A stretch of DNA of 40,000 nucleotides from Sutcliffiella tianshenii (GCA_020524525.2 CP129018.1:1204115-1244114); one strand, 5' to 3'. Positions 5,830 through 38,032 are shown, counted from the first letter of the stretch. A program made the numbers and translations. Notes: a model not told the origin generated them from the letters alone.

Positions 5830-6978
5830 ATGACTATTAAGTTTAAAAAATCAGAAGCATTTAACGAGGCAAAAGCAAAATTGACGACTGTACTTGCAAA
5901 CGCAGAATCCACGCAAGAGGAACAAACAGAAGCCTTTCAGGACTTCTTTGACGCGTTGCAATCTAATGTAGTTAACACAGTACGCTCTCAAGTCAATGAT
6001 GAAATGCTAGATCGTTCTATTCTGCAGCAACGAGGTCAAAATGTTCTTACCAGCGAAGAGACTAAGTTCTTTAATGCAGTTGTGCAAGATGGTGGGTTCA
6101 AAGACGATGCTCTTCTTCCAGTCACTACTCAAGAGCGTGTATTTGAAGATTTGAAAACTGAACATCCTTTACTTAAGGCGATTGGTCTCCAAGACTTAGG
6201 AGCGGTTACAAAGTTCATTTATTCTGATGCCACTAAAGCTTATGCATGGGGTGAATTGTTTGGTGACATTAGAGGACAAGTCAATGCAGCGTTCAAAGAA
6301 GAGAAGATTGGACAACTTAAATTGACTGCATTTGCTGCTATTCCTAATGACATGCTTGAATTAGGACCTGAATGGATCGAGCGTTATGTTCGCACTGTAT
6401 TGATTGAATCATATTCTGTTGGTTTGGAATTTGGTTTTGTTAACGGGGGAGGCGCGGTTGCAAGTCAGCCTGTCGGATTAATCAAAGATGTTGATCCAAC
6501 TACTGGGGCAATTACTGATAAGACGTCATCTGGAACATTGACATTTGCCCCATCTGACAAAGGACAAATTGTAGCAGGGGAACTTTATGAAGTCGTAAAG
6601 GCTCTCTCTACTGATGCTTCCGGTAAAAACCGTAAAGTCTTAAACAAGGTTGTAATGGTTGTAAATCCAGTTGATGCGATCGGTGTCCAGGCCCGTAATA
6701 CAATTCAGACTCCTAGCGGTCAATGGGTGATGGCCTTGCCGTATAACATTCAAGTTGTGGAGTCAGAAGAAGTGCCTGTCGGTAAAGCAATTTTCTTTGT
6801 TAAAGGCCAGTATCTTGCAGCTATTGCTGGTGGCTACAAGCTGAAGAAGTTCGACCAAACACTTGCTATTGAGGATGCCACACTGTACACAATTAAGCAG
6901 TTTGCTAACGGCAAGCCAAAAGATAATAAGGCAGCACTTGTGTATGACTTAGATATTGACTTTACCCCAGCAGTTTAA
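5830..6978 (+). CDS. Major capsid protein (HK97 fold family)
   Basis: 382 aa. N-terminal helical delta-like segment, strong SD (GGAGG), position after the protease. Confidence 0.9.
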   Translation: MTIKFKKSEAFNEAKAKLTTVLANAESTQEEQTEAFQDFFDALQSNVVNTVRSQVNDEMLDRSILQQRGQNVLTSEETKFFNAVVQDGGFKDDALLPVTTQERVFEDLKTEHPLLKAIGLQDLGAVTKFIYSDATKAYAWGELFGDIRGQVNAAFKEEKIGQLKLTAFAAIPNDMLELGPEWIERYVRTVLIESYSVGLEFGFVNGGGAVASQPVGLIKDVDPTTGAITDKTSSGTLTFAPSDKGQIVAGELYEVVKALSTDASGKNRKVLNKVVMVVNPVDAIGVQARNTIQTPSGQWVMALPYNIQVVESEEVPVGKAIFFVKGQYLAAIAGGYKLKKFDQTLAIEDATLYTIKQFANGKPKDNKAALVYDLDIDFTPAV

Positions 6979-7000
6979 AATGAAAGGAGTATAGTCTCAC

Positions 7001-7318
7001 ATGCCTTACAAAGTGATTAATAGGTTTTTAGACAAAGAGAATGGCACTCTTTATGAGGTTGGTGACGAGTTTCCTAAAGGAAATACTGAACCTACTAAAG
7101 AAAGAATTGTCGAGCTGTCAAAGAAGCATCCGAAGTATCAGAAAGCATTCATAGAGGAATTAAAAGATGATGGGGCAGCTCTTACGAAAACTGAATTGAA
7201 AAAGTTGAACAAAAGTGAACAAGAGCAGTTAATTAAAGACTTGAATGGCGACCCAAGCAATGCTAAAAATGAAGAAGACCGTGTTACTTTGATTTTGAAG
7301 CTGCAAAAAGGTGACTGA
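7001..7318 (+). CDS. Hypothetical phage head-region protein
   Basis: SD AAAGGAG upstream, co-linear in the head module. No family recognised. Confidence 0.6.
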   Translation: MPYKVINRFLDKENGTLYEVGDEFPKGNTEPTKERIVELSKKHPKYQKAFIEELKDDGAALTKTELKKLNKSEQEQLIKDLNGDPSNAKNEEDRVTLILKLQKGD

Positions 7319-7345
7319 ACTCCTGGCTGATAGGAGGCATAAAAA

Positions 7346-7648
7346 ATGACCATTAGTGATGAAGTTTTGAACCAATTTAAAGAGAGGATGCACTTGGGGG
7401 ACGATGAAGATGAAAACCTAAGACGCATCCTTTCTTCATCTGTTACAGCATTAAAAAGAGCTTGTGGAAGTTATGACATAAATACAGATGAAACGTTCAA
7501 AGAGCTAGTTTTTGAGCGCTCTAGGTATGTTTATAACGATGCTTTAGAGTTTTTTAACCGAAACTTTTTAAGTGAAATCAATAGTTTAGGTATTGATAAA
7601 GCCCTTGCAGAAATTGTTTTAGAGGATGATACAGATGCAGCCATTTAG
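7346..7648 (+). CDS. Head-tail connector protein (gp6-like)
   Basis: About 100 aa with the LGDDEDENLRRILSSSVTALKRACG pattern typical of gp6-like connectors, plus synteny. Confidence 0.75.
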   Translation: MTISDEVLNQFKERMHLGDDEDENLRRILSSSVTALKRACGSYDINTDETFKELVFERSRYVYNDALEFFNRNFLSEINSLGIDKALAEIVLEDDTDAAI

Positions 7649-7991
7649 ATACAAGCCTAAGGTAAATTCCGGTGAATTAAGAAATCGAATTGACGTATAC
7701 GGAAAAACGAAAACAACTAATGAATTAGGTGAAATAACACAGTCATTCAGCAAGGTTAAATCTATTTGGGCTGCTGTTGTCCCTCAAACTGGTAAGATGC
7801 AAAAACAACAAGTTGAAACCATTTTAACGAATGTCACTCATAAAGTTATTGTCAGGCACAACGCAGGTAAGGAAATTACACCTGACATGTATATCATGTT
7901 CAGGGAGAAACGCTTTGATATTGAATATATTCTCAATCCTTACTTTAAAAATGAGACGCTTGAAATCTTCTGCAGGGAAGTGATCGAGTAA
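7626..7991 (+). CDS. Head closure / head-tail adaptor protein
   Basis: LRNRIDVY...WAAVVPQTGK...THKVIVR pattern of phage head-tail joining proteins. The true start is probably ATG 7635, 9 nt after GAGGA. Confidence 0.75.
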   Translation: MIQMQPFRYKPKVNSGELRNRIDVYGKTKTTNELGEITQSFSKVKSIWAAVVPQTGKMQKQQVETILTNVTHKVIVRHNAGKEITPDMYIMFREKRFDIEYILNPYFKNETLEIFCREVIE

Positions 7992-8407
7992 TGGAAATTG
8001 AAGGTTTGACTGAATTTCAACGGGATTTGTTAGAAGTAGCTCAACGGAAATTGCCAAAAGAAAGTAAAAAGGCTATGCGAAAGGTTGGCAGCAAAGCAAG
8101 AACCCAGGTCGCAAGAAGAGCAAGGAAGGAAGTCAACAAAGTAACAGGCACCTACCAGAAGAGATGGAAGCGGGGAAAAGTCTTCATTGGTGAAAACAAA
8201 GAAATCGTTGTACGTGTATATAATTCAGCACCTCATGCTCACTTAATTGAGGATGGCCATAGACAGGTAACAAAAGATGGCCGAGAAGTCGGGTTTGTAA
8301 GAGGAAAGCATGTGCTGGAGAAATCAATGAAGGAGTTTGAGGACAGGGAGATAGAAAAAATGCTGGGTGATTGGCTAGATGGTTTGTTAGAGGAAGGTTC
8401 TCTATGA
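7991..8407 (+). CDS. HK97 gp10 family tail-component protein
   Basis: YNSAPHAHLIEDGHR motif region and synteny. Confidence 0.75.
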   Translation: MEIEGLTEFQRDLLEVAQRKLPKESKKAMRKVGSKARTQVARRARKEVNKVTGTYQKRWKRGKVFIGENKEIVVRVYNSAPHAHLIEDGHRQVTKDGREVGFVRGKHVLEKSMKEFEDREIEKMLGDWLDGLLEEGSL

Positions 8408-8832
8408 TTACGTTAAAAGATATTAAGAAATCCATAAATTCTAAAATTAGTGCTGCATTTGCTGGGATTGATATTCAATCGACAGACGTATCAGAAGGCT
8501 TTCATAGACCTTCTATTTTTGTGGAGTTTGACAATATGAAAAAAGAATCTTTTCCAGAACAAATTCGTCGAAGCTTAACTGTGCGAATTTATTATTTTCC
8601 TTCAGATAGAAGTCAGCATTCCATTGAATTGTTAGAGGTTCAGGAACGTTTAGAAGCGCTGTTTGATTTAAAACTGGACGTTCTTAATCGAAAATTTAAC
8701 ATTCAAGACGTGTCAACCAATATTGTTGATGGCGTACTTAATTTTTATTTTGATATTGCCTATGAAGAAGGAAAAGAAATTGATGAAAGTAACATTGAAA
8801 AGATGTTAACTCTTGAACTAACGAAAGGGTGA
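8404..8832 (+). CDS. Putative tail completion/terminator protein (position-based)
   Basis: ATGA overlap with the preceding stop (start 8404 rather than the ORF-track 8371). Lies immediately upstream of the sheath gene. Confidence 0.5.
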   Translation: MITLKDIKKSINSKISAAFAGIDIQSTDVSEGFHRPSIFVEFDNMKKESFPEQIRRSLTVRIYYFPSDRSQHSIELLEVQERLEALFDLKLDVLNRKFNIQDVSTNIVDGVLNFYFDIAYEEGKEIDESNIEKMLTLELTKG

Positions 8833-9896
8833 ATATGGTGGGGCTGCCAGAAATCAATATTGAGTTTAAAGGGAAAGCAGTAAGTGCAGTGAAGCGGAGT
8901 GCAAGAGGTATTGTTGCACTTATTTTGCATGATGATACCGGAAGCTTTGAGACGAAAGTGTATACAGAGAGTACTCAAGTTGAAGGCACTGATTGGACCG
9001 AAGAAAACATTGATCTCATTAAAGTTGCCTTCAAAGCCAATCCTGCCAAAGTCATATGTGAGCGATTAGATACGACCGCAACCGATTTAGCTGCAGGGCT
9101 AACAAGATTAGGGAGCAAAAGGTTTAATTACTTAGCCATTCCTTCAATCACAACAGAGCAAGTACCTGATGTAGAAACATGGATTAAAAGTAAGCGTGAA
9201 AGTGATAAGCGCTCGTATAAAGCCGTTTTACCGCATGCCGACTCCGATCATGAAGGGATTATTAACTTCGCGACAAGCGACATTGTTGTGGGAGAAAAAA
9301 CATACACAACCGAAGCTTATTGTGTTCGGATTGCCGGTATTTTAGCTGCATTGCCATTTACGCGTTCTGCAACCTATTATGAGCTTTCAGAAGTGGATTC
9401 AATTATTGAAAGTACCGATCCAAACGGAGACATTGATGCTGGAAAGCTGATTCTCATTAATGACGGTGAAAAAATCAAGATTGGGCGAGGCGTGAACAGT
9501 TTAACCACCACAACATTGAATAAAACAGAGGACTTCAAAAAGATTCGGGTTGTGGAAGTGATGGACCTCATGTCAGACGATATTCGTTCTACTTATGACA
9601 ATTATTATGTAGGGAAAGTAAACAATATCTATGACAATCAAGTATTATTTTTCACTTCCATTAACGCCTATTTTGAAGGACTAGAAGCTGATGAAATTCT
9701 TGACCCGAACTTTGATAACAGGTCTGGCGTAAATATAGAAGCTCAACGCTTAGCATGGGAAAGTATTGGCATTGACACAAGCGAATGGTCTGAGCAACAA
9801 GTGAAAGAAAACACATTTAAGAGTAAAGTTTTTGCAAAAGCAAACGTGAAAATTGTTGATGCAATGGAAGACTTAGACTTCCAAATTGCAATGTAA
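8829..9896 (+). CDS. Tail sheath protein (XkdK-like)
   Basis: 355 aa upstream of an XkdM-like tube protein. The start may be ATG 8835. Confidence 0.8.
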   Translation: MNMVGLPEINIEFKGKAVSAVKRSARGIVALILHDDTGSFETKVYTESTQVEGTDWTEENIDLIKVAFKANPAKVICERLDTTATDLAAGLTRLGSKRFNYLAIPSITTEQVPDVETWIKSKRESDKRSYKAVLPHADSDHEGIINFATSDIVVGEKTYTTEAYCVRIAGILAALPFTRSATYYELSEVDSIIESTDPNGDIDAGKLILINDGEKIKIGRGVNSLTTTTLNKTEDFKKIRVVEVMDLMSDDIRSTYDNYYVGKVNNIYDNQVLFFTSINAYFEGLEADEILDPNFDNRSGVNIEAQRLAWESIGIDTSEWSEQQVKENTFKSKVFAKANVKIVDAMEDLDFQIAM

Positions 9897-9909
9897 GGAG
9901 GCGAGAAAT

Positions 9910-10344
9910 TTGTCCAAAGTAAAAAGTAATAAGCAAATCAACGGCACGTTCGGGACTGTGTGGGTGAACGGTGACAAGTGGTTGGATATTGACTCCTTTG
10001 AAGCAAAAATCACGATTGACTTTGAAGATGTAAACATGGCTGGTGACTTAGCTACTCACAAGAAAATGACAGGCTGGACAGGCGAAGGCTCCATGACTGT
10101 AAAGAAAGTATACAGTCGCGGGGCTTCTTTAATGGCGAATGCTGTTAAAAAAGGTGTTCTTCCTGACATTTCAATTGTGGGGAAATTAGACGACCCTGAT
10201 GCTTTCGGTGCAGAGCGTATAGCCATTAAAGAAGTGACGTTTAATGAATTTATGCTGATGAAGTTTGAACAAAAGACATTAAGTACAGAAGAGCTGCCGT
10301 TTAACTTTGCTGACTATGACCCAATTGATTTAATCAGTGCATAA
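9910..10344 (+). CDS. Tail tube protein (XkdM-like)
   Basis: TTG 9910 lies 8 nt after AAGGAGG (the ORF-track start 9886 overlaps the sheath end). INGTFG...FEAKI...TGWTGEGSMTVKKVYS pattern of XkdM/DUF2001 tube proteins. Confidence 0.8.
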   Translation: MSKVKSNKQINGTFGTVWVNGDKWLDIDSFEAKITIDFEDVNMAGDLATHKKMTGWTGEGSMTVKKVYSRGASLMANAVKKGVLPDISIVGKLDDPDAFGAERIAIKEVTFNEFMLMKFEQKTLSTEELPFNFADYDPIDLISA

Positions 10345-10357
10345 GGAGAGATGAAAG

Positions 10358-10750
10358 ATGAGTGTAAACAAGCTAACACTAACTGAATTAATTAAGAATA
10401 AGGAGAAGTATCAAGTTAAGGCTGATACAAAGGAAGAGTTATTTATTGAACGCTTAGGTGCAAGTATTACGATCAACAAGCCTGAGCGTTCTTTATGTTT
10501 AGAAGCTTTTCAAATGGCAAATGACGATGTGCAAGCGGAACAAGCAGATGCCTATGTTGTCTATAACATTGTTTCGGAACCCAATTTGAAAGACTCTGAG
10601 TTGCATAAAACATTTGGTTGTGCAGAACCGATTGATATTGTTGAGAAGTTATTTGAGGCTGGTGAAATTGCAAGAATTGCTCAAACAGGATTAGAGTTAG
10701 CAGGGTATAACAAAACCATTAAAAAGGTTAAAGATTTAAAAAACTCATAG
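10358..10750 (+). CDS. Tail assembly chaperone (XkdN-like), zero-frame product
   Basis: 130 aa between the tube and tape measure genes. Confidence 0.7.
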   Translation: MSVNKLTLTELIKNKEKYQVKADTKEELFIERLGASITINKPERSLCLEAFQMANDDVQAEQADAYVVYNIVSEPNLKDSELHKTFGCAEPIDIVEKLFEAGEIARIAQTGLELAGYNKTIKKVKDLKNS

Positions 10751-10905
10751 AAAGTGATGGCGATTTCCATTTTATCCATCACTACTTACAAAAAGGGTTT
10801 TCAATGGATTATTTGCTTAATTTGAGAGCGGATGAAAAGCTTTTCATGCTGGCTAGCATGGAGCAATACAACGATGAAGAAAGAGCTAAATACTCATTGA
10901 AATAG
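10358..10905 (+). CDS. Tail assembly chaperone, predicted -1 frameshift (G-T-like) extended product
   Basis: The -1 frame is open from the slippery site to TAG 10903-10905 (53 further codons: LIESDGDFHFIHHYLQKGFSMDYLLNLRADEKLFMLASMEQYNDEERAKYSLK). Confidence 0.6.
10738..10744 (+). promoter_or_regulatory. Slippery heptamer A AAA AAC for programmed -1 ribosomal frameshift
   Basis: The zero frame reads TTA AAA AAC TCA TAG. This is an X XXY YYZ heptamer 4 nt before the stop. Confidence 0.6.
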
Positions 10906-10936
10906 TTCTTTCTTCAATGAATTTGGTGGTGAAGAG

Positions 10937-12967
10937 ATGTCTAGCAGAGTCATATCCGCCGTTTTAACGTTAAGAGACCAGAACTTTACCACGAATGCAA
11001 GGCGAGCATCTAACCAAGTGTCAGATTTAGAACGTGGTGTCAGGAGTGCTGGAAACCGTATAAATCAATTTGGGAGCACGGCTGTAAGCAGCTTTGCAAA
11101 TATGGCGAGGGAAGCTGCTACAACAGTTGGAGTGTTGGCCGGATTTGCAGGGCTTACGACAATTGCTCAATCGATTCATGAAGTGGACCAGGCATTCGAC
11201 AATTTGGCTGCCAAAACGGGAGCAACTGGCACTCAGCTAGAAAAGTTAAATGGTGTGACCACTGAAGTGTTTAATAAAGGTTTTGGTGAGAGTATCGCAG
11301 ACGTTTCAAATGGAGTTGCCACATTAGAATCAATGTTTAGTGATCTAAATGACGGTGCTTTGAGTAATGTTGCTGAGGGAGCCTACACAATAAGCAGCCT
11401 ATGGGATGCAGAAGTGAAAGAGGTTGGAAAGACCGTTAAAACCATGACGAAAACATTTAAAGGCTTATCGGAAACTGATGCCATGGATTTAATGACAACT
11501 GCATTCCAGAAAACAGGTGACTACTCTGACGATTTACTTGATACGTTTAACGAATATTCCCTGTACTTTGAGAAGTTGGGCTTTGATGCTAAAGGCTTCA
11601 CAAATGTTCTCGTAAAAGGTGCAGAAGCAGGAGCCTACACAATGGATAAGGCTGGGGATGCCATCAAAGAATTTGGCATCAGGTCCATTGATGCCAGTGA
11701 TGCTACTGCAGAAGGTTTTAAAGCAATTGGGTTAGATGCTGAATTAATGACCAATAACTTTGCTGCTGGTGGAGAGACAGCTCAAAATGCATTTGCTGCT
11801 ACGGTTGCAGGGTTAGCAGCAATGAAGGACCCAGTTGAACAGAATGCTGCAGGTGTGGCTCTCTTCGGAACGCAATGGGAAGATTTGCGAGAAACCGTTA
11901 TTTTGTCTATGAGTGATGGGCAAGATGCAATCGGAGAGTTCGAAGGGGCAACAAAAAAAGCTGCTGAAACGATGCAGGACAATTTCGGTGCAAGGATGAA
12001 AAAGGTTTGGCGAGAATTGCAGACAGGCATCGTTGAAGTTTTTAACGAAAATGGAGGGCAAGAATTTCTTGGTGCTGTTGCTACAAAAGCAGAGGAAATT
12101 ATCCCTAAGGTTATAGAAGGTCTGCAGAGTACGAAAGGTACAGCTGCTGAAGTGTTTGGGTTCTTTAAGGATAATTGGGGAACGCTTGAGCCGATTATCT
12201 TTGGAGTTGTAGGAGGGATTACAGCTTATAAGCTTGCTGTAACAGGCGCAGCTGCAGCAACAAATGTCTGGAAAGGTGTCACCACGACCATGACTATTGC
12301 ACAGGCGTTATTTAACGGCACTTTAGCGATTTCACCATTAGGGTGGGTTGCTATTGCAATTGGAGCAGTTATAGCTGTAGGTATACTGTTATGGAGAAAC
12401 TGGGATACCGTTAAAGCAAAAGGATTAGAGCTTTGGGAAAGCTTAAAAGGTGTTTGGAGCGGTATTACCACAGGCTTTTCTAATATGTGGTCCGGTGTGA
12501 AAAGTGCTACAGGGAGTGCAATAAACTATGTTATTAGTGGTTTGAATCGTATGATTACTGGCTTGAATAACTTTGCTAGCTTTAAAGTTCCAGATTGGGT
12601 GCCAGGTATCGGGGGGGAAGGCTGGGAGATGAGCATCCCGACTATCCCTCAATTTGCTTTAGGTACGAGTTACTTTAAAGGTGGACTAGCTCAAATCAAT
12701 GAGCGTGGTGGCGAGATTGTTGACTTGCCGAATGGTTCAAGGGTTTATCCGCATGATAAGTCAGTACAAATGGCAAGAAATGAAGGACCAGGCAATACAA
12801 ATGGTTCAATAGAAGTTGTGAATTTATTACGTACCATTATTAGTTTGCTGAAAGAATCACAAAAGCCAAGTGTTGTTATTGAAAATATTGACGCGGTGGA
12901 TAAATCAATGAATGAGATTTTGAATGAATTAATTCCTTTATTAAAGAAAAGGATAGCCAATATGTAA
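10937..12967 (+). CDS. Tail tape measure protein
   Basis: 676 aa, Ala/Gly-rich and helical, with internal hydrophobic segments. Position is after the chaperone pair. Confidence 0.9.
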   Translation: MSSRVISAVLTLRDQNFTTNARRASNQVSDLERGVRSAGNRINQFGSTAVSSFANMAREAATTVGVLAGFAGLTTIAQSIHEVDQAFDNLAAKTGATGTQLEKLNGVTTEVFNKGFGESIADVSNGVATLESMFSDLNDGALSNVAEGAYTISSLWDAEVKEVGKTVKTMTKTFKGLSETDAMDLMTTAFQKTGDYSDDLLDTFNEYSLYFEKLGFDAKGFTNVLVKGAEAGAYTMDKAGDAIKEFGIRSIDASDATAEGFKAIGLDAELMTNNFAAGGETAQNAFAATVAGLAAMKDPVEQNAAGVALFGTQWEDLRETVILSMSDGQDAIGEFEGATKKAAETMQDNFGARMKKVWRELQTGIVEVFNENGGQEFLGAVATKAEEIIPKVIEGLQSTKGTAAEVFGFFKDNWGTLEPIIFGVVGGITAYKLAVTGAAAATNVWKGVTTTMTIAQALFNGTLAISPLGWVAIAIGAVIAVGILLWRNWDTVKAKGLELWESLKGVWSGITTGFSNMWSGVKSATGSAINYVISGLNRMITGLNNFASFKVPDWVPGIGGEGWEMSIPTIPQFALGTSYFKGGLAQINERGGEIVDLPNGSRVYPHDKSVQMARNEGPGNTNGSIEVVNLLRTIISLLKESQKPSVVIENIDAVDKSMNEILNELIPLLKKRIANM

Positions 12968-20218: not shown

Positions 20219-20314
20219 GTTTTTAATTTTCAAAAAAAAGGATTATTGATAATGACCTCTAATATAATTAATAAAGTTAATTAAATGTTGAATTTTAATG
20301 GGGGGAATTATTTT

Positions 20315-20641
20315 ATGGAAACAAAAGAAGTTAAACTTCCGGAACAAGGAAGAATTGCGTATCATTTACTAGCGTTAATGTATAGAGAAGGTAGAATTGA
20401 TTTAAGTGTTGTTTATTCTAAATTAGAAGAGAAAATGGGGATTACCGAAGAACAAAAAAATTTGAAGTATGATAGTGGAGAAAGTATGTGGAAAGCTCGA
20501 GTTAGAGCTGCAAAGCATAATACTTTAAAGGAAACCGGTCTCGTTAGAAATGGGAAAAAAGGGGTTTGGGAAATTACTTCTAAAGGTAAAAAGAAATTTG
20601 AAGAAATGCAAAAGTTAGGTTTAATCTCATTGAATTATTAA
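20315..20641 (+). CDS. Stand-alone winged-helix protein resembling the Mrr N-terminal (Mrr_N) domain (moron)
   Basis: ATG 20315 sits about 10 nt after GGGGGG (the ORF track starts at 20285). MWKARVRAAKHNTLKETGLVRNGKKGVWEITSKG matches the W..R.R.....L...G.......G.W.IT..G pattern. Has its own terminator. Confidence 0.55.
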   Translation: METKEVKLPEQGRIAYHLLALMYREGRIDLSVVYSKLEEKMGITEEQKNLKYDSGESMWKARVRAAKHNTLKETGLVRNGKKGVWEITSKGKKKFEEMQKLGLISLNY

Positions 20642-22553: not shown

Positions 22554-22850
22554 GTGTCCAGCATGAGAAAACAATATGACAAAGAATTTAAATTGTATGC
22601 CGTTCGTATGGTGGAGGAGGATGGTAAAAAAATTGCACATGTGGCAAGAGAACTAGATATCGCCGAACAAACCCTCCACAACTGGGTGAAAAAATACCGG
22701 ACTGACCAAGAAAAAGGATTCGTTGGCAGTGGAAACCGCAAGCCAGAAGACCAAGCTGTCCATGATTTACAAAAACGCCTGCGTGACCTGGAAGAAGAGA
22801 ATGCGATCTTAAAAAAGGCTATGGGCATCTTCGCAAAAGACCGGAAGTAA
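22554..22850 (+). CDS. IS3-family transposase OrfA (HTH)
   Basis: YDKEFKLYAVRMVEEDGKKIAHVARELDIAEQTLHNWVKKY is the typical IS3 OrfA HTH, followed by a leucine-zipper-like tail. The probable start is ATG 22563. Confidence 0.9.
   Translation: MSSMRKQYDKEFKLYAVRMVEEDGKKIAHVARELDIAEQTLHNWVKKYRTDQEKGFVGSGNRKPEDQAVHDLQKRLRDLEEENAILKKAMGIFAKDRK
22811..22817 (+). promoter_or_regulatory. A AAA AAG slippery site for the IS3 OrfAB -1 frameshift
   Basis: TTAAAAAAGG lies near the 3' end of orfA. orfB is in the -1 frame (start coordinates mod 3: 0 vs 2). Confidence 0.75.
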
Positions 22851-22897
22851 TTTATGGCTTCATTGAAGAGCACCGACACGAATTTCGTGTAGCGAAG

Positions 22898-23722
22898 ATG
22901 TGCCTTGTTTTAGGTGTATCGAAAAGTGGCTTCTATGCTTGGAGGAATCGTCCAAAAAGTGAACAGAAGATCCGAAAAGAAAAGCTTACAAGTCAAATTA
23001 AGCAAGCGCACATTCAATCAGGTTGTGTATATGGCAGTCCAAAGGTTACAAGAGTGCTGCATAACCGTGGGATTTCGGTGTCGCAAAAGACGGTTTCACG
23101 CATTATGAGCGAGAATGACTTACGCTCAAAAACGGTGAAGAAATATAAAGCGACAACCAATTCAAAACACTCTTTCCCTGTTTATCCGAACCTTCTTAAT
23201 CAGCAGTTTCAAGCTGAAATGCCTGGTGAAATTTGGGTAGCTGATATTACTTATATTTGGACAAAAGAAGGCTGGCTGTATTTAGCGACTGTGATGGACT
23301 TGTTTTCTAGACGAATTATCGGCTGGCAGATGGATAAACGAATGACGAAGGAGTTAGTGATTACAGCTTTAAGGCGTGCGCTTGGGAAGCAAAAAATCCA
23401 AGAAGGACTCATTCATCATTCCGGTCGTGGAAGCCAGTATGCCTCAAATGAATACCAAGCTCTTTTAAGAGGCTTTGGCATCCGTACCAGTATGAGTAGA
23501 AAAGGCAACTGTTACGACAATGCGTGCATTGAATCCTTTCACAGCGTTCTCAAAAAAGAACTAATCTTTCATCAGAATTATCGAACACGGGAAGAAGCCA
23601 AGAAAAGCATCTTTACTTACATTGAGAGTTTTTATAATTACAAACGGATTCACTCAGCGATCAACTATCAATCTCCCATTGCGTTTGAAAAGCAGTATTA
23701 TAAGCAGCAGAAAGGTAGCTAA
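22898..23722 (+). CDS. IS3-family transposase OrfB (DDE/rve integrase core), expressed as OrfAB fusion
   Basis: WVADITYI...HHSGRGSQYAS...GNCYDNACIESFH DDE pattern. The frame is -1 relative to orfA. Confidence 0.9.
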   Translation: MCLVLGVSKSGFYAWRNRPKSEQKIRKEKLTSQIKQAHIQSGCVYGSPKVTRVLHNRGISVSQKTVSRIMSENDLRSKTVKKYKATTNSKHSFPVYPNLLNQQFQAEMPGEIWVADITYIWTKEGWLYLATVMDLFSRRIIGWQMDKRMTKELVITALRRALGKQKIQEGLIHHSGRGSQYASNEYQALLRGFGIRTSMSRKGNCYDNACIESFHSVLKKELIFHQNYRTREEAKKSIFTYIESFYNYKRIHSAINYQSPIAFEKQYYKQQKGS

Positions 23723-25720: not shown

Positions 25721-25727
25721 TGAAGGA

Positions 25728-25773
25728 ACCCACTGAGTTGTTCGTATAGTTTACTATACAGCTGCTTGGTGGG
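25728..25773 (+). repeat. Hairpin repeat family A, copy 1 (ACCCACYGAG ... CTTGGTGGG)
   Basis: Outer stem ACCCACTGAG/CTTGGTGGG, inner stem GTATAG-ttta-CTATAC, then a T-rich run. Acts as the terminator of 25397..25720. Confidence 0.8.
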
Positions 25774-25859
25774 ATGTTTATTTTTTCATAATAAAACAAG
25801 CACTATATCTGAGGGAGGAGAGAAGTGACCTTTCCTTTGAACATATATAGTAAAAAGTT

Positions 25860-25890
25860 ATATCCATAAATAACCAAGCATATCCATAAA
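25860..25890 (+). promoter_or_regulatory. Two 11-bp direct repeats ATATCCATAAA, 20 bp apart, just upstream of the three-gene operon
   Basis: Copies at 25860-25870 and 25880-25890. The second ends 10 nt before ATG 25901. Confidence 0.5.
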
Positions 25891-25900
25891 ATAAAATCAT

Positions 25901-26476
25901 ATGGGGAGCTTGGTTATATTGCGTTATAAAACACACATCGTAAGCTCGTTAACAGCAGGTGCTGGTTTGGCAATTATGTTAAATTATCCTTTTCATATTG
26001 GATATGTAATTGGGATATGTTTTGGTAGCTTGCTGCCGGATATCGATGAACTGCGATCATTCATCGGTCGTAGATCCTTTGGCCTTTCTAAATATGTTAA
26101 ACAAAGATATGGACATCGAGGAATGACACATAGTTTATTTGCATGGATGCTTGTATCAGTTGTTTTTTTAATCTACCCATCTTTCTTAACAGTTGGCATT
26201 TCCTTAGGATACCTGTTTCACTTAATTGGAGACTTATTTTCAGGACGAAGCATTCCTATTCTAGCCCCATTTAAACCAGTCCGTCCGAATCTCCCCTTTA
26301 CATACAAAACAGGTAGTTTTTCAGAGGACATATTACTCTACATTTTTACTTTTTTATTATTCTATTTTGTGTTTGCATTCGGAAAGCTCTACCCCTATTT
26401 GATTCAATCAACAGTAGAGTTAGTTTCTTCTATTATTTATATATTAATTGATTACCTAAAGACAATATCAAAATGA
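25901..26476 (+). CDS. YdjM/DUF457-like membrane-bound metal-dependent hydrolase
   Basis: Multi-pass hydrophobic protein with GSLLPDIDE, HRGMTHS and GYLFHLIGDLFSG motifs, as remembered for PF04307. The start is uncertain (TTG 25919 has better SD spacing). Confidence 0.7.
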   Translation: MGSLVILRYKTHIVSSLTAGAGLAIMLNYPFHIGYVIGICFGSLLPDIDELRSFIGRRSFGLSKYVKQRYGHRGMTHSLFAWMLVSVVFLIYPSFLTVGISLGYLFHLIGDLFSGRSIPILAPFKPVRPNLPFTYKTGSFSEDILLYIFTFLLFYFVFAFGKLYPYLIQSTVELVSSIIYILIDYLKTISK

Positions 26477-26488
26477 GGAAGTGGTGAA

Positions 26489-28129
26489 GTGTATAAAAAA
26501 CCATTGATCATTCATCCTGACAGCAGGAATATTTATTTGTTGGAAGGTTTAGATGAAAAAGGAGAACTCGGTCAGGAGTTAATTGAATTCGCAGATTTAA
26601 TTCAAGCACCCGAGCAAGTCCATACCTATGCTTTAACCCCATACGCGTTATGGACTGCAAAAGCAAAAGGAGTAGAAGTAGATTATATTATTCGCTTCTT
26701 AGAGCAACAATCTCAAAATGTAGTACCAGATTCGTTAAAAGAGACAATTAAAAAGAATATGAACCATTTTGGAGCATTACAATTTTCCATGGATGATGAT
26801 CGTTTGCAATTACAGGCAAGAACGGAAGAGTTAATAAGCGAAATTAAAGCCATTGAGGGAATTCAAAGTAAAATCGTATGTCATCCAGATCCGAAGACTT
26901 TATTGTTTAAATCTCGGTACAGAAAAGAGATTAAGAAACTACTCTTTGAGCAGGAATTATTTGCAAAAGATATTGTTTATGAAGTTGGAGAGGAATTAGA
27001 TATTACCAGCATAAACCTTCAACTATTGGATTACCAGCATGCTGCAGTTGAGTCGTATTTAACTTTTAACCATCAAGTTGGTGGTAGTGGAACGATAATT
27101 ATGCCACCGAACTCAGGAAAAATCCTAGTCGGAATTAAAATCATTGAGGCATTAAAAACATCAACACTAATAATTGTCGAGGATAAACATAGGGCAGAGA
27201 AGTGGAAAGGTGAACTCATTGAAAAGACAGACCTGTCTGAGAGCAATATTACATTCTTTAGTAAGGAAGACAAAAGCTTAAAACCAATTACAATTGGAAC
27301 ATATGAAAATCTTGCTGATCACGTAGAGGATTTGGAGGGTTTTGGTTTTGTGATATATGATGATGCTCATAAACTTCCAACGCCAACACATGAAAGAACA
27401 GCAGATATTCAAGCAACGAATAAATTAGCTTTAGCATCAACTCTAGCAAGATCTGATGGCAATGGCCATCTTGTTTTTGCATTAATTGGGCCAAGGTGGT
27501 ATGAAGTACTACACCGATCCCTGGTAAACCGAGGATACCAAGTTCCTGTGAGGTGCGTAGAAGTTAAAATTCCTTTACCACCAGATGAGCGGCGTGATTA
27601 TATTGCTAGAGATCATAACAAGAAAGTAAATCCAGACACTTTAAATTCTAACAAATATAAGGCGTTATCAATTTTATTAAAAAAAGAGAAAGCAAAAAGA
27701 TTATTGGTTGTTTCTTATTTCAATGAGGTTACAACAACGTGTAGTGAACTAATTGAAATAGATACATTGATGAATCAGTTAGGTGAAGAAAAGCAACAAT
27801 ACCTTATAGGTTCATTTAACAGTAGAGAGATTGATAAATTAATAACATCCTCAAAACTTATTGAAAATATGACACTTTCCATGGTTGAAGTGATGATTGC
27901 CTTATCCCATCAACAAGGGTCTGTAAGGGAAGAATATCTCCGGATCGGGAAATTACTGCCTGCAGAAGAATGGAAAGAAGATGCTGTATTGTATTCACTC
28001 GTTTCATTAAATACGGATGAGGAAAGACATTATTCCAAAAGAAGACGAAAACTTATCAATTATGGATTTCATTATCGAATTCTTACATTTGAGGAGTTAG
28101 TGGATAGGGGTGAGTTTTTTGAATCATAA
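26489..28129 (+). CDS. XPB/ERCC3(Rad25)-like SF2 helicase homologue with degenerate ATPase motifs
   Basis: The N-terminus PLIIHPDSRNIYLLEG...PEQVHTYALTPYALWTAKAKG...VVPDSLKETI matches the XPB N-terminal domain. GGSGTIIMPPNSGKILVG, VIYDDAHKL, LASTLARSDG and IGPRWYEV...GYQVPVRCVEV align with XPB motifs I, II, III/RED and the following segment. Confidence 0.8.
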   Translation: MYKKPLIIHPDSRNIYLLEGLDEKGELGQELIEFADLIQAPEQVHTYALTPYALWTAKAKGVEVDYIIRFLEQQSQNVVPDSLKETIKKNMNHFGALQFSMDDDRLQLQARTEELISEIKAIEGIQSKIVCHPDPKTLLFKSRYRKEIKKLLFEQELFAKDIVYEVGEELDITSINLQLLDYQHAAVESYLTFNHQVGGSGTIIMPPNSGKILVGIKIIEALKTSTLIIVEDKHRAEKWKGELIEKTDLSESNITFFSKEDKSLKPITIGTYENLADHVEDLEGFGFVIYDDAHKLPTPTHERTADIQATNKLALASTLARSDGNGHLVFALIGPRWYEVLHRSLVNRGYQVPVRCVEVKIPLPPDERRDYIARDHNKKVNPDTLNSNKYKALSILLKKEKAKRLLVVSYFNEVTTTCSELIEIDTLMNQLGEEKQQYLIGSFNSREIDKLITSSKLIENMTLSMVEVMIALSHQQGSVREEYLRIGKLLPAEEWKEDAVLYSLVSLNTDEERHYSKRRRKLINYGFHYRILTFEELVDRGEFFES

Positions 28130-29231
28130 AGAAGCCCTTTCGCAATTAAGCCGAGAACAGGTAAATGAAATATTGGATAAGCTAAGAATCGAACCATTTA
28201 AGGGTGCCACGAAGGCATGGATTGCTAAGGATATCGCAGCATTTTATCAAGATTCAAAAAAGTTTCATCGTGTGATACAAAGCTTTGGTGAAAAGACTAT
28301 AAATGACTTACTTCTTTTTGCACATATTCAAAAGCCAATTAATAATGAACAAGCACAGTTATTTAATGATTACGGAATACTTGTTGAGGGAGAGCTTCCA
28401 GTTGATTTGAAAGATTGTTTAATTCAGTGGTCAAGATCGATGTTTGTTAAAACTTTTTCATCAATAAGTGAAGGTACTAACCATAGCTTTTTCTTAAAAT
28501 GTGTTTTATTACTTAATTACTTTGAAAGAGAGCAGAATGTAAAATTAACTCAGAGAAAAAATGATCGTAATGTTCGGCTTTTGACAGAAGAGTTAATCAT
28601 GGACAAGGAAACAGTTTGGAAAGTAATTAATATTTTAGTTAATTATGGATTTCTCAAGAGAACTAAACATCTTTATGAACTTAATGTACCTGCTTATAGT
28701 AAATGGAAAAAGCAAACAATAGACAAGGTTTTAGAAAGCTTTTATGAGAAGCAAGTTGGAAGTAGAGGTATTTTGTTTTTACAAAAAATCTCCAAATACC
28801 AACAGAAACCTGATGAATGGGTTGATATGACTGTTATTTCAGACACTGCTATAGAATTTGACCAATCCAGGCAATTAGGCTTAATACATGTTCATAAGGA
28901 GTCAGGAAACACATATGTTCAATTGATGCCGGAGGGCTGGTATCTTACTAAAAAGCTAGTTCATCCGTTATGGACTCAAGAAGCATTGTTAGTATCAGCT
29001 TCATTTGAAATTTTTGTACCTTATCATTACGATCCATTTATACTATTTGAACTTCTGCCAGTATGTAGAATGAAAGATTCACATTACTTTTTAGTATTTG
29101 ATATTGAACTGGATCAGGTGAAGAAAAATAAAAAGGTTTTACAAGAGTTTTATTACACTTTAACTGGATGTGCTTCAGTCATTCCGGATGTAGTTGAATA
29201 TGAACTTAAAACTACAATGGTTAAATTATGA
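28110..29231 (+). CDS. Helicase-associated partner protein (central wHTH, C-terminal XPB-NTD/p52-like domain)
   Basis: Overlaps the helicase 3' end by 20 nt. KETVWKVINILVNYGFLKRT looks like a wHTH recognition region. The C-terminus ALLVSASFEIFVPYH...LFELLPVC...YFLVFDIELDQVKKNKKVLQEFYYTLTG..VIPDVVEYEL parallels the helicase N-terminus. Confidence 0.65.
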   Translation: MSFLNHKEALSQLSREQVNEILDKLRIEPFKGATKAWIAKDIAAFYQDSKKFHRVIQSFGEKTINDLLLFAHIQKPINNEQAQLFNDYGILVEGELPVDLKDCLIQWSRSMFVKTFSSISEGTNHSFFLKCVLLLNYFEREQNVKLTQRKNDRNVRLLTEELIMDKETVWKVINILVNYGFLKRTKHLYELNVPAYSKWKKQTIDKVLESFYEKQVGSRGILFLQKISKYQQKPDEWVDMTVISDTAIEFDQSRQLGLIHVHKESGNTYVQLMPEGWYLTKKLVHPLWTQEALLVSASFEIFVPYHYDPFILFELLPVCRMKDSHYFLVFDIELDQVKKNKKVLQEFYYTLTGCASVIPDVVEYELKTTMVKL

Positions 29232-29515
29232 GAAGATGTATAAAGAGTTAACATAGTAACCCACCGAGTTGACGTATAGGATTCTATACAGATACTTGGT
29301 GGGTTTGGGTCATTCCCATAGCTGTCTGAATCACGAAACTTACCATTTTTTCCTTGAATCCTTAATTCTGAACTGTTGCTTTTGGCCCGTTCTCTTCCAT
29401 AACTTATAGCATCCCTTTGAGTATCGAATGTTTTTGCTACCCTTGATTTGTTTTTACCACGAACTGCCCATTTATCTCCGTGTCTTACAACGTATTGATT
29501 ATCTTTGTTTGCCAT
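29153..29515 (-). CDS. DUF2188-family small protein; the ORF runs on past the expected end through the hairpin
   Basis: MANKDNQYVVRHGDKWAVRGKN...TQRDAISYGRERAKSNSSELRIQGKNGKFRDSDSYGNDPNPP (73 aa, ending near 29297) matches DUF2188. A further 47 codons overlap the convergent gene and look non-native. SD GGAGGGAGG upstream. Confidence 0.7.
   Translation of the reverse strand: MANKDNQYVVRHGDKWAVRGKNKSRVAKTFDTQRDAISYGRERAKSNSSELRIQGKNGKFRDSDSYGNDPNPPSICIESYTSTRWVTMLTLYTSSHNLTIVVLSSYSTTSGMTEAHPVKV
29259..29303 (+). repeat. Hairpin repeat family A, copy 2
   Basis: ACCCACCGAG ... GTATAG-gatt-CTATAC ... CTTGGTGGG. The stems are the same as copy 1 but the loops differ. It lies between the convergent genes. 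Confidence 0.8.
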
Positions 29516-29655
29516 TATTACACCTCCCTCCTTTTTTTACAAAATTCAACAAATTTATAAGAAACACCTTCTATTTACTGGGAATTTTGTTAAACTAAAT
29601 TTAATAGATGTCGACAGTTTACATTGCTATAGAGTGAAGATTAGGGGTGTTTAGT

Positions 29656-30525
29656 ATGGAATGTGCTTTGTGTAATAAAGATACCACTTTAGAATTAAGT
29701 CATATAATTCCGAAATTCGTTTATCGTAGCATGAAAAAGAATTCTCCTACTGGTAATATGCGATTAATGAGTGAGCCAAATAGAAAAATACAAGATGGTG
29801 ACAAGCAACAAATGCTATGTGGGGAATGTGAGGATTTGTTTAATCAAGATGAAACAACTTTTGCAAACACAATTTATCATAAATATCAGTCAGGGACGTT
29901 ACAAGAATTCGAGTACGGTCCTTGGTTTAACCGATTTATAACCTCTGTGAACTGGCGAAATTTGTATTTGGACATTATCGGATTTGTGTCAGAACAGAAT
30001 ATTGATCCCTTCAGATTAGATGTGTTAATTCATGCTGAAAAAGTTATGCGGGGCTATTTATTAGGAGAAAGTCAAGATTTAAGGGATATAGAAAATCATG
30101 TATTCTTTTTCAATCCTATAGAAACAGCTTCAGAAGATATGGCTGATTTAAACTTACATACTGTTTTTGGAGGTAGTGTTTTTGGTTATACATTTATCAG
30201 CCATGATCATGATTCATACTACGTTTTTTTGAATCTTCAAGGATTAGTCTTAGTTACTATTATTAAATCGGCTAGACAAGAATCATGGAATAACACCTTA
30301 GTGCATAAAGAGGGTAGATTTGACCCTAATAAACCTCAGCATATTACTTCACCATTATTTTCAGAATTTGAATATCTTGCTCAAGAACGTAAAAAATCAA
30401 TGGAGCAAATGTCTAATAAGCAGCGAGAAAAAATTATTGAAGGCATAAAAAAAGACCCAGAAAGATTTAAAAACAGTAAAGCTTATGAACGTATGTTGAA
30501 TGATCAACGACTTAGAAATAAGTAA
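29656..30525 (+). CDS. Hypothetical protein with N-terminal Cys4 zinc-ribbon (CALC...SHIIPKF...CGEC), unknown family
   Basis: ATG 29656 lies 6 nt after GGGGTG (the ORF track starts at GTG 29647). CxxC-x46-CxxC with an SHIIP motif between them. 289 aa. Confidence 0.65.
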   Translation: MECALCNKDTTLELSHIIPKFVYRSMKKNSPTGNMRLMSEPNRKIQDGDKQQMLCGECEDLFNQDETTFANTIYHKYQSGTLQEFEYGPWFNRFITSVNWRNLYLDIIGFVSEQNIDPFRLDVLIHAEKVMRGYLLGESQDLRDIENHVFFFNPIETASEDMADLNLHTVFGGSVFGYTFISHDHDSYYVFLNLQGLVLVTIIKSARQESWNNTLVHKEGRFDPNKPQHITSPLFSEFEYLAQERKKSMEQMSNKQREKIIEGIKKDPERFKNSKAYERMLNDQRLRNK

Positions 30526-36465: not shown

Positions 36466-38032
36466 CAGGCTGTCGAGAAAGTCTCGACAGCCTGTTTTTT
36501 TACCTTATTACCGCGTTAATTTGTTATAATAGATGTAAATGAAGATACAGGCGGTGATAAGGTTGTTTCATACAAATAAAGACCGACAATACGAAATGGA
36601 GTTTGTACATATTGAAGAGCTAGTCCCAGAAGACCATCTCTTACGAAAAATTGATAAATATATTGATTTCTCCTTTATCCTTGAAAAAGTTCGTCCTTAT
36701 TATTGCGAAGATAATGGGCGTCCCTCTCTCGATCCTCTCGTTCTTTTCAAAATGATGTTTATCGGCTATTTTTATGGTATTCGTTCCGAACGTCAGCTTG
36801 AACGTGAAATTCAGACAAATGTCGCTTACCGATGGTTTTTAGGGCTTCATCTAAATGATAAGGTTCCTCACCATTCAACGATTAGTTGGAATCGGCGTAC
36901 ACGATTCAAAGGCACAACGGTTTTTCAAGACATTTTTGATGAAATCGTTCATCAAGCGATGAGTCATCGTATGGTCGGTGGTCGAGTGCTGTTTACGGAT
37001 TCGACTCATTTGAAGGCAAATGCCAACCGACACCAATTTACACGGGAAGAAGTAGAAGAAGAAACACGGGATTATATTGATGAACTTAACAAAGCTGTGG
37101 AAGAGGATCGGATCCAGAATGGAAAAAAGCCCCTTAAACCGAAAGAGGAGGTGAAAGAAACAAAAACGATCCGCGTTAGTAAGACGGATCCTGAGAGTGG
37201 TTACCTATACCGTGAGAATAAGCCAGAAGGGTTCTTTTATTTAGATCATAGAACGACTGACCTGAAATATAATGTGATTACCGATGTTCATGTCACTCCA
37301 GGCAACCTTCACGATTCTGTTCCTTATTTGAATCGGTTAGACCTACAGGTTGAAAAGTTTGGCTTTGATTTAGAAGGTGTGGGACTGGACGCTGGTTACT
37401 TAACAATGCCGATTTGTAAGGGGTTAACTGACCGTAACATTTTTGGAGTCATTGCTCATCGTCGGTACAGTTCGACGAAAGGACTTATGCCAAAGTGGAA
37501 ATTTAAATTTGATGAAGAACGAAATGTTTATGTATGTCCACAGGGAGAAACGTTAACCTATCGCACCACTACAAGAGAAGGGTACCGCGAATACAAATCC
37601 GATCCAAAAAAGTGTGAAGAGTGTTCATTACTTGAAAGCTGTACACGGTCTAAAAATCATCAAAAGGTTCTCACCCGACACATGTGGGAGGACCGAAAAG
37701 AACAAATCCGACGAAATCGCTTATCCAAAGAAGGAAAAGTGATTACACAAAAAAGAAGAGAAACCGTTGAGCGAAGCTTCGCAGATTCAAAAGAACTGCA
37801 TGGGCTTCGCTATTGCAGGTTGAGGGGATTGGAAAATGTAAAAGAGCAGGCATTACTTACAGCTGCCTGCCAGAACATGAAAAAAGATTGCCCTTCACCT
37901 ATCCAGACAGAATGGATAGGTGAAGGGGAGTATTTTTCTTTCAAATCCTCACTTCTATAGAGTAAAAATCATCCTATTTTAAAAAGTCATGAAAAAAGCT
38001 TGTAGAAAAACACAGGGTTTCTCTACAAGCTG
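36466..38032 (+). mobile_element. IS1182-family (IS5-like, DUF772 + DDE) insertion sequence
   Basis: Bounded by the 19-bp direct repeat. The ends are CAGGCTGTCGAGAAA... and (reverse complement) CAGCTTGTAGAGAAA.... Both ends fold into 10-12 bp hairpins. Confidence 0.85.
36539..37960 (+). CDS. IS1182-family transposase
   Basis: LVPEDHLLRKIDKYIDFSFI...GRPSLDPLVLFKMMFIGYFYGIRSERQLEREIQTNVAYRWFLGL (DUF772 N-terminus) and a C-terminal ERSFADSKELHGLRYCRLRGLENVKEQALLTAACQNMKK. The start may be further downstream. Confidence 0.9.
   Translation: MKIQAVIRLFHTNKDRQYEMEFVHIEELVPEDHLLRKIDKYIDFSFILEKVRPYYCEDNGRPSLDPLVLFKMMFIGYFYGIRSERQLEREIQTNVAYRWFLGLHLNDKVPHHSTISWNRRTRFKGTTVFQDIFDEIVHQAMSHRMVGGRVLFTDSTHLKANANRHQFTREEVEEETRDYIDELNKAVEEDRIQNGKKPLKPKEEVKETKTIRVSKTDPESGYLYRENKPEGFFYLDHRTTDLKYNVITDVHVTPGNLHDSVPYLNRLDLQVEKFGFDLEGVGLDAGYLTMPICKGLTDRNIFGVIAHRRYSSTKGLMPKWKFKFDEERNVYVCPQGETLTYRTTTREGYREYKSDPKKCEECSLLESCTRSKNHQKVLTRHMWEDRKEQIRRNRLSKEGKVITQKRRETVERSFADSKELHGLRYCRLRGLENVKEQALLTAACQNMKKDCPSPIQTEWIGEGEYFSFKSSLL

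Follow-up and report, generated by a model that had tools for sequence, protein, structure and literature searches.

A predicted XPB-like/p52-like protein pair and a YdjM-family membrane protein encoded by a mobile module of Sutcliffiella tianshenii, a candidate bacterial defence system

Introduction

In the transcription factor TFIIH, p52 stimulates the ATPase of XPB (PMC3353954) and binds the N-terminal domain of XPB through its clutch domain, which is a structural homologue of that same domain (PMC6422496). Homologues of p52 have been stated to be absent from bacteria, and archaeal XPB lacks the N-terminal domain PF13625 (PMC3353954); the function of XPB in bacteria was still called elusive in a 2026 review (PMC13024598). 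The present study concerns a three-gene operon of Sutcliffiella tianshenii, located in a window of 40,000 nucleotides (CP129018.1:1204115-1244114), which is the whole stretch of DNA that was analysed and from whose first letter all positions are counted. The operon encodes a YdjM/DUF457 membrane protein (gene 1), an XPB-like superfamily 2 (SF2) protein (gene 2), and a partner (gene 3) whose predicted fold resembles that of p52/Tfb2.

Results

The product of gene 3 (28110-29231, + strand; 373 or 370 residues) is 100% identical to the hypothetical protein LC040_06170 and gave no match to Pfam, NCBIfam, or the sequences of the Protein Data Bank (PDB). Its AlphaFold model, built from 17 homologues, had a pLDDT (predicted local distance difference test) of 87 and a pTM (predicted template modelling score) of 0.75. 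When the model was compared with the PDB by Foldseek, the top 18 matches were all p52/Tfb2 chains of human, yeast, or Chaetomium TFIIH, including the p52-p8 crystal structure 6TRS (E 6e-6 to 3e-2, probability 0.69-1.00, alignments of 314-456 columns); below them came only generic winged-helix regulators, at E>0.03. The predicted p52-like fold extends along the whole length of the protein. The Pfam Tfb2 model (PF03849) matched one of 40 diverse relatives (E=2.9e-4) and not the window protein, a result that may be taken as a small independent signal from sequence. The family is rare, as a set of 1.84 billion proteins contained 49 cluster representatives of it; the Big Fantastic Virus Database (BFVD) gave no match, and in PADLOC nothing but a CARF model was matched, and that marginally (E=0.0018, 16 bits).

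The first-pass annotation had described gene 3 as a protein with a winged-helix centre and a C-terminal copy of the XPB N-terminal domain. Profile comparison did not bear out such a copy (hhalign probability at most 3.5%), and the idea is backed only indirectly, through the p52-like fold. With the 18 top fold matches and the one relative matching Tfb2, we replace that description: the model suggests that gene 3 is better described as a TFIIH p52/Tfb2-like partner.

Gene 2 (26489-28129, + strand) encodes a 546-residue protein with two RecA-like domains, an XPB N-terminal domain (residues 16-126), and an XPB-specific C-terminal helicase region. The three Pfam domains of the broad XPB-family architecture all exceeded their gathering scores, namely PF13625 at the N-terminus (70.0 bits against 34.2), ResIII (PF04851; 39.6 against 22.5), and ERCC3_RAD25_C (PF16203; 71.7 against 27), in agreement with the initial reading of an XPB-type N-terminal domain plus an SF2 core. 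The protein aligned with human XPB (E=2e-40) and with the NCBIfam XPB equivalog model NF045503 (residues 5-531 with positions 1-547 of 548), at a score of 351.2 bits that fell below the cutoff of 610.

The helicase motifs of gene 2 are degenerate: instead of the canonical GxGK[ST], DExH, RED, and QRxGRxxR, the protein has NSGKI, DDAH, RSD, and LRIGKLLP. Compared with human XPB, Walker A reads NSGKI for GAGKS, motif II DDAH for DEVH, motif III with RED ASTLARSD for TATLVRED, motif V IENMTLSMVE for GDTSFDLPEA, and motif VI LRIGKLLP for QRLGRVLR. DDAH, R[S/A]D, and LRxGK are common to the entire Bacillota clade of gene 2 homologues. The replacement of the Walker A threonine by isoleucine, leucine, or methionine (GKT to GKI here) is confined to a subclade of proteins sharing 59% identity or more with that of the window, and in two proteins of this subclade the Walker A lysine is lost instead (SGDT and SGHT); the B. 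cereus variant has GKT. In comparison with the module of Bacillus piscicola (locus L001, 77% identical), the ratio of nonsynonymous to synonymous substitution rates (dN/dS) was 0.11 for gene 2, 0.16 for gene 3, and 0.25 for gene 1, making gene 2 the most constrained. Judged from its sequence, gene 2 is still dependent on its fold and surfaces, whereas ATP-driven, processive translocation is probably dispensable, and processive unwinding is doubtful. With gene 2 XPB-like and gene 3 predicted to be p52-like, the core of the operon therefore appears to be a bacterial XPB–p52-like pair, and in this narrow structural statement, that a bacterial XPB-like/p52-like module exists, we have high confidence.

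Conservation was assessed with genomic and metagenomic sequences that provided 24 distinct loci, all from Bacillota where the organism was named. The p52-like gene directly followed the XPB-like gene in every one (24/24), mostly with overlapping stop and start codons, at a partner identity of 27-91%. The third gene varied: 13 loci had YdjM, four had a transmembrane (TM) Mrr-type nuclease, and seven had neither. YdjM lay upstream and co-directional in 12 loci, including the Bacillus cereus group and Bacillus sp. CMF21 (43-44% helicase identity), and downstream and convergent in a Pelosinus metagenome-assembled genome. In the four Mrr loci, a two-TM protein carried an Mrr_cat domain with an intact D...ExK motif (two co-directional, two divergent). 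The motif residues are D137, E150, and K152 in L012 numbering, and the Mrr-type operon of L016 spans 7644-11137. Since YdjM is exchanged, missing, or decayed in several loci, only the helicase and its partner are obligate, and the triad is one of the forms that this pair takes. The operon-like conservation proposed for a three-gene unit was thus found, with the pair as its obligate part and YdjM as a third gene for which at least one substitute exists. The exchange between YdjM and the TM Mrr_cat protein represents effector modularity of a kind typical for defence systems.

Some copies of the module are damaged. YdjM has an internal deletion of residues ~72-129 in B. mesophilum (L009, 7967-8364) and a premature stop in Ureibacillus (L010, 7792-8367), in modules that are otherwise intact. 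The helicase gene is split in L004, L005, and some L003-type strains; in L004 (7120-8761) it forms open reading frames (ORFs) of 232 and 334 residues. Decay of components is sporadic, and intact copies are under purifying selection (dN/dS 0.11-0.25).

Gene 1 (25919-26476, + strand) encodes a polytopic membrane protein of 185 residues that matched PF04307 at 92.5 bits (E=2.8e-26, threshold 29). In 29 homologues, down to ~31-34% identity, H6, PDID40-43, HRG66-68, H71, H101, and D105 were invariant, which upheld the original assignment to YdjM/DUF457 with metal-hydrolase motifs. The AlphaFold (AF2) model was all-helical with a pLDDT of 94. These sequence features indicate a putative membrane-embedded, metal-dependent hydrolase, the candidate effector of the module. 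A Pelosinus YdjM homologue gave a weak match to Zn_dep_PLPC, the Zn-dependent phospholipase C family (E=2e-4). A kinship of YdjM with phospholipase C or P1 nuclease is no more than this weak sequence hint suggests, the fold comparison with the PDB giving no significant match.

The three ORFs are packed on the + strand (25901-26476, 26489-28129, and 28110-29231 by mechanical ORF calling). The 12-nt spacing between genes 1 and 2 that had been read at the outset agrees with the TGA stop at 26474-76 and the GTG start at 26489, which is preceded by the ribosome-binding site GAGGAAG. The overlap of genes 2 and 3 is 20 nt, as initially given, if gene 3 starts at GTG 28110 (373 residues), and 11 nt with TTG 28119, which is the start in the 370-residue call of NCBI and in most homologues and may, from the sequence, be the actual one. 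The predicted start of gene 1 is almost certainly TTG 25919 rather than ATG 25901 of the mechanical ORF, because a 1-nt deletion in L001 ends the ATG frame after four codons and because the arrangement GGGAG-N10-TTG-CGT-TAT-AAA at the gene 1 start is invariant.

Upstream of gene 1, a 66-nt leader (25853-25918, + strand) forms the 5' end of the mobile unit, as judged by its sequence and by the homology boundary, and is highly conserved even where whole modules share only 65% identity. The two 11-bp direct repeats noted in the first-pass annotation, ATATCCATAAA, lie within it at 25860 and 25880; in the conserved leader, they are two copies of ATATCCAT[A/T]AA, 20 nt apart. A CCAAGC/GCTTGG inverted repeat brackets the Shine-Dalgarno sequence GGGGAG of gene 1, and the resulting stem is predicted to pair across it; covariation was absent. 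No obvious sigma-A promoter was seen in 25853-25918. The leader might act as an operator, or it might hold down the translation of a toxic gene.

Two stable hairpins lie beside the operon. The upstream one, with a T-run (25727-25790, + strand; -23.5 kcal/mol, z=-4.3), is a terminator-like element of a preceding 107-residue ORF, and the 3' one (29258-29306, + strand; -25.8 kcal/mol, z=-5.4) is a terminator-like stem-loop of the operon at the right end of the mobile unit; for each, none of 200 shuffled sequences was as stable. They are copies of one element, alike in their left arms and in 31 nt that are 84% identical. The view that both insulate the unit needs amendment: both are real and stable copies, but only the 3' one belongs to the mobile unit. 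The 3' hairpin is kept in L006-L010 with T-runs behind it, and in L009 changes in both arms restore pairing. In Bacillus sp. AFS015802 (L007), an extra CCCACC...GGTGGG copy was observed 3 kb downstream of the module (10698-10743), which suggests that this hairpin family is a recurrent terminator or a repetitive extragenic palindromic (REP)-like element in these genomes.

The mobile unit is a discrete 3.46-kb segment with sharp, identical ends. DNA homology of 90-94% identity with Bacillus spp., Halobacillus, and Ureibacillus starts at 25846-25852, a left boundary identical in at least five loci, and ends at 29305/6. The upstream hairpin lies outside it in most loci; homology begins only at ~25846, save in Halobacillus (L008), in which it runs from 25834 to 30524. 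The unit was thus recently transferred between genera. A DUF2188 gene (29153-29515, - strand) adjoins its right end, and the gene product matched the PADLOC single-gene candidate PDC-S16 (residues 1-73 of 75, E=2e-29). The ORF runs on for 47 codons, across the 3' hairpin and into the last part of gene 3; its original stop codon was apparently lost where it meets the mobile unit (29305/6), a point at which L007 retains an additional 48 nt.

A ComM-like gene of the Mg-chelatase family was observed 1-3 kb upstream of the module in four genomes (L006 459-2619, L007 584-2976, L008 5136-6722, and L010 4832-7236), followed in three of the four by an IS200-type Y1 transposase. This setting suggests a shared island or integration hotspot, unlike the prophage-adjacent site in the window.

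The surroundings that had been listed for the operon were all found: prophage lysis genes, an IS3 element, Abi_2/AbiD, MazF, and AmpS (peptidase M29). The operon is flanked by AbiD and the DUF2188 gene, with MazF 3 kb off and the IS3 element and the end of a prophage upstream; the prophage genes in the window include TerL, tape measure, tail fibre, and endolysin. Related loci have as neighbours AbiEi/AbiEii with SocA-Panacea; Abi_C, IS21, and TnpB; a Gabija-like GajA (OLD ATPase), a UvrD helicase, and a RES protein; a specificity (S) subunit of type I restriction-modification with Abi_2; McrBC with an OLD nuclease; Hachiman HamA/HamB with Abi_C and an integrase; or DUF1156 with DUF499. The module is therefore a conserved operon at variable genomic positions beside known defence genes, by a tally made by inspection; neither a breakdown of the unit nor a fixed core-genome position was encountered when these were checked for. 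Defence-type and mobile contexts are frequent, as had been proposed, but not universal, the exceptions being the B. cereus group and Tumebacillus.

Each gene was also compared with named defence systems, using PADLOC-DB 2.0, which is dated 2023 and covers systems named up to then; no gene had a family-level match, in line with the initial failure to place the triad. Azaca, proposed as the first candidate to test, consists of a DUF6361 protein, a phospholipase D (PLD) nuclease, and an SF2 helicase, and its domain content differs from that of the operon. Pfam scans of the three proteins found no DUF6361, and PADLOC gave no ZacA match; none of the three genes has a PLD domain (HxKx4D), as in ZacB; and gene 2 is an SF2 protein that did not match the ZacC model, its only PADLOC match being a partial one to PbeA. 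Identity with Azaca is thus ruled out by domain content and PADLOC.

Several further observations were made in the window and at related loci. The IS3-family element (22554-23722, + strand; helix-turn-helix orfA 22554-22850, rve orfB 22898-23722) separates the prophage lysis genes from AbiD, and a second transposase, DDE_Tnp_1_6, is found at 36539-37960 (+ strand). A 292-residue Cys-rich ORF with a CxxC near its N-terminus (29647-30525, + strand) had no Pfam or PADLOC match and may be another cargo or defence gene of the island; its counterpart in Halobacillus (L008) is only a 131-residue 5' ORF at 86% identity. In the prophage late region, a 118-residue protein with an Mrr_N domain alone (20285-20641, + strand) lies between the tail-fibre and lysis genes and may be a prophage-borne decoy or regulator. 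Closest to pairs with neither YdjM nor Mrr_cat, we observed an HD/HD_assoc phosphohydrolase upstream on the same strand in Natranaerobius (L023, 436-1968), an alpha/beta hydrolase upstream on the same strand in Tumebacillus (L022, 6870-7841), and a 155-residue protein downstream on the opposite strand in Heliobacterium (L020, 10955-11422); these might be further alternative third components, or mere neighbours.

Discussion

We favor, at a probability of roughly 55%, the explanation that the module is a previously undescribed, mobile candidate system against phages or other mobile DNA, in which an XPB/p52-like sensor controls a membrane hydrolase; the defence phenotype is what we infer. The core would be a DNA-surveillance module of two proteins, namely the XPB-like SF2 protein, which is divergent, and its p52/Tfb2-like partner. 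If TFIIH is a guide, the clutch region of the partner would bind the XPB-like N-terminal domain. Such a physical interaction is consistent with the invariant adjacency of the two genes; gene 2 retains PF13625, the p52-binding domain in TFIIH. The heterodimer would bind duplex DNA and recognise some feature of foreign or replicating DNA as its trigger. The earlier term, a nucleic-acid-sensing helicase pair, retains its DNA-binding role as a reading, but the degenerate ATPase motifs lead us to prefer the term XPB-like DNA-binding switch. Given the degeneration of Walker A, RED, and motifs II, V, and VI, the heterodimer would more likely serve as a clamp or switch gated by nucleotide than as a processive translocase.

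In the proposed mechanism, the heterodimer would license a membrane-anchored hydrolase, YdjM in the window and the two-TM Mrr-type PD-(D/E)xK nuclease in the sister systems. The output may be membrane damage, as in abortive infection, or DNA cleavage at the membrane. The Mrr variant argues for DNA cleavage as at least one output, and the outputs need not be equivalent, given the swapping of effectors in other defence systems. The loci holding the pair only would imply that the pair has an activity of its own, or an unlinked effector.

Several points weigh against this explanation. The AF2 model of gene 1 had no significant match among solved PDB structures (best E=1.6), and the closest YdjM relatives outside the system, in Geobacillus, are stand-alone genes in housekeeping-looking contexts. 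The likeness of gene 3 to p52 is at the fold level only, with a global TM-score of just 0.24-0.31, as would be expected of a modelled flexible multi-domain protein, and searches of PDB chains by sequence and by profile returned no p52, giving either nothing or a spurious CIP2A match. Searches of phage, plasmid, and IMG/VR collections gave no match for gene 3. Seven of the 24 loci (in Heliobacterium, Tumebacillus, Natranaerobius, and metagenomic contigs) showed no YdjM and no Mrr_cat; of these, the contig L033 extends just ~1.9 kb upstream. Either the pair acts alone at these loci, or the effector model is incomplete. In the B. cereus group and Tumebacillus, the module lies among metabolic genes at an apparently stable site, and the tally of defence neighbours is one made by inspection.

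The alternative that survives best is a bacterial DNA-repair or genome-maintenance module, in which the pair would open damaged DNA as in eukaryotic or archaeal nucleotide excision repair and YdjM would be a damage-response membrane protein. In its favor, gene 2 can be aligned along its entire length with the NCBIfam XPB repair-helicase model and with human XPB, canonical bacterial XPB genes also precede a helicase-associated partner, and some loci lie amid housekeeping genes. E. coli ydjM is a LexA-regulated member of the SOS regulon; however, a search found no LexA/Cheo box near the operon. Moreover, gene 2 misses the XPB equivalog cutoff widely (351 against 610 bits), and the residues for DNA opening are replaced (Walker A Thr, the Glu of DExH, the Glu of RED, and the motif VI Arg). 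A very patchy and rare family, recently transferred between genera with sharp unit ends, pseudogenised in some copies, and located beside defence and mobile-element genes also speaks against a role in repair, as does the replacement of the third gene by an Mrr nuclease. We therefore regard this alternative as unlikely.

A selfish addiction or toxin-control cassette, in which the pair restrains a YdjM or Mrr toxin and thereby stabilises the carrier island or prophage, comes next, and we rate it as improbable. The effector-like gene is a membrane-embedded protein or a nuclease, YdjM is inactivated in two copies that are otherwise intact, the cassette is mobile, toxin-antitoxin genes (MazF, AbiE, and SocA) adjoin it, and the conserved leader may restrict the translation of gene 1. 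Nevertheless, two large, strongly constrained DNA-binding proteins (dN/dS 0.11-0.16) would be an unusually elaborate antitoxin, seven loci hold the pair without a toxin-like gene, and the cassette was not found on the plasmids or phages searched; abortive-infection defence and addiction can, in addition, both hold. That the operon belongs to a helicase-containing defence system that already has a name (such as Azaca, Pbe, Hachiman, Zorya, or DISARM) is highly improbable, since the weak match of gene 2 residues 176-322 to PADLOC PbeA (E=2e-7) and the resemblance of the sister Mrr domain to the nuclease domains of ZorD, mREase_IV, and PDC-S02 are at the domain level only (ResIII and Mrr_cat), genes 1 and 3 match no defence-protein model in PADLOC-DB 2.0 (2023) apart from the marginal CARF match of gene 3, and the DUF6361 ZacA and PLD ZacB of Azaca are not present.

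If defence is indeed the role of the XPB-like/p52-like module, protection against phages or plasmids would add a system made of families new to immunity (XPB-like, p52-like, and YdjM) and would provide the first functional context for the large, uncharacterised YdjM/DUF457 family. We further propose, tentatively and at less than even odds, that the XPB-p52 submodule of TFIIH, which opens or senses DNA, has a true prokaryotic counterpart, which in Bacillota is compact, ATPase-attenuated, and co-opted as a sensor of mobile immunity with swappable membrane effectors. If so, the stated absence of p52 homologues from bacteria (PMC3353954) would be overturned, and components of TFIIH would join the eukaryotic machines that are related to bacterial defence or repair modules. 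Whatever the answer on defence, the occurrence of a p52/Tfb2-like partner beside an XPB-like protein in bacteria is relevant to how the TFIIH core arose, and also to what XPB does in bacteria. An XPB variant that is degenerate in its ATPase and yet constrained also offers a ready test of XPB scaffolds as DNA-gated switches.

A full-text literature search, covering papers other than subscription-only ones, found no description of this XPB-like/p52-like/YdjM system; one lead under the name DUF457 was actually DUF4579 in Cap1 and irrelevant. By analogy, the XPB-p52(-p8) part of TFIIH is the closest functional analogue, the likeness consisting in the XPB architecture of gene 2 and the predicted p52/Tfb2 fold of gene 3. 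In contrast to TFIIH, the module is prokaryotic and consists of two genes, with no homologues of XPD, p44, p62, p34, or p8 nearby; the gene 3 partner is ~90 residues shorter than p52, the ATPase and RED motifs of gene 2 are degenerate, and the module is linked to membrane hydrolases and defence islands. In the archaeal XPB-Bax1 system, an XPB-family gene likewise adjoins those of a dedicated partner and a nuclease or hydrolase, with which its product presumably cooperates, and the Mrr sister systems formally correspond to such a pairing of XPB with a nuclease (PMC7293015). However, the partner here is p52-like, no Bax1 chain was among the fold matches of gene 3, and the position of the nuclease is taken either by a separate, membrane-spanning Mrr-type protein or by YdjM.

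Canonical bacterial XPB genes, known from Actinobacteria, Deinococcus, and Paenibacillus, resemble the operon in that XPB is followed by an overlapping or just-downstream partner. That partner has 657-811 residues and a recognisable PF13625, whereas gene 3 is shorter and lacks profile similarity to it; gene 3 as a canonical helicase-associated partner was rejected, hhalign giving 1.6% against the Paenibacillus partner. The Prokaryotic Genome Annotation Pipeline (PGAP) calls the canonical helicases "DNA repair helicase XPB", whereas gene 2 lies below the NCBIfam cutoff and is 28-32% identical to them. In two canonical loci examined, no membrane effector gene was annotated within 5 kb. A canonical XPB with a large partner, in which PF13625 lies mid-protein, was observed in Paenibacillus cellulosilyticus (L030, 4983-8676, with the partner at 6703-8676) and Deinococcus sp. 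QL22 (L031, 4980-9472), the latter with a 99-residue ORF between the two genes.

Finally, the nuclease-nucleoside triphosphatase (NTPase) systems Azaca, Hachiman, Gabija, and AbpAB share with the operon a compact gene set, situated in defence islands, that combines an SF2 or SF1 NTPase with a hydrolytic effector (10.1101/2025.07.10.664194). The operon of S. tianshenii differs from them in its protein families, its membrane-embedded effector, its degenerate NTPase motifs, and the added p52-like subunit. Thus, the logic of an NTPase-plus-effector operon is already known, while the set of components found here is plausibly unprecedented.

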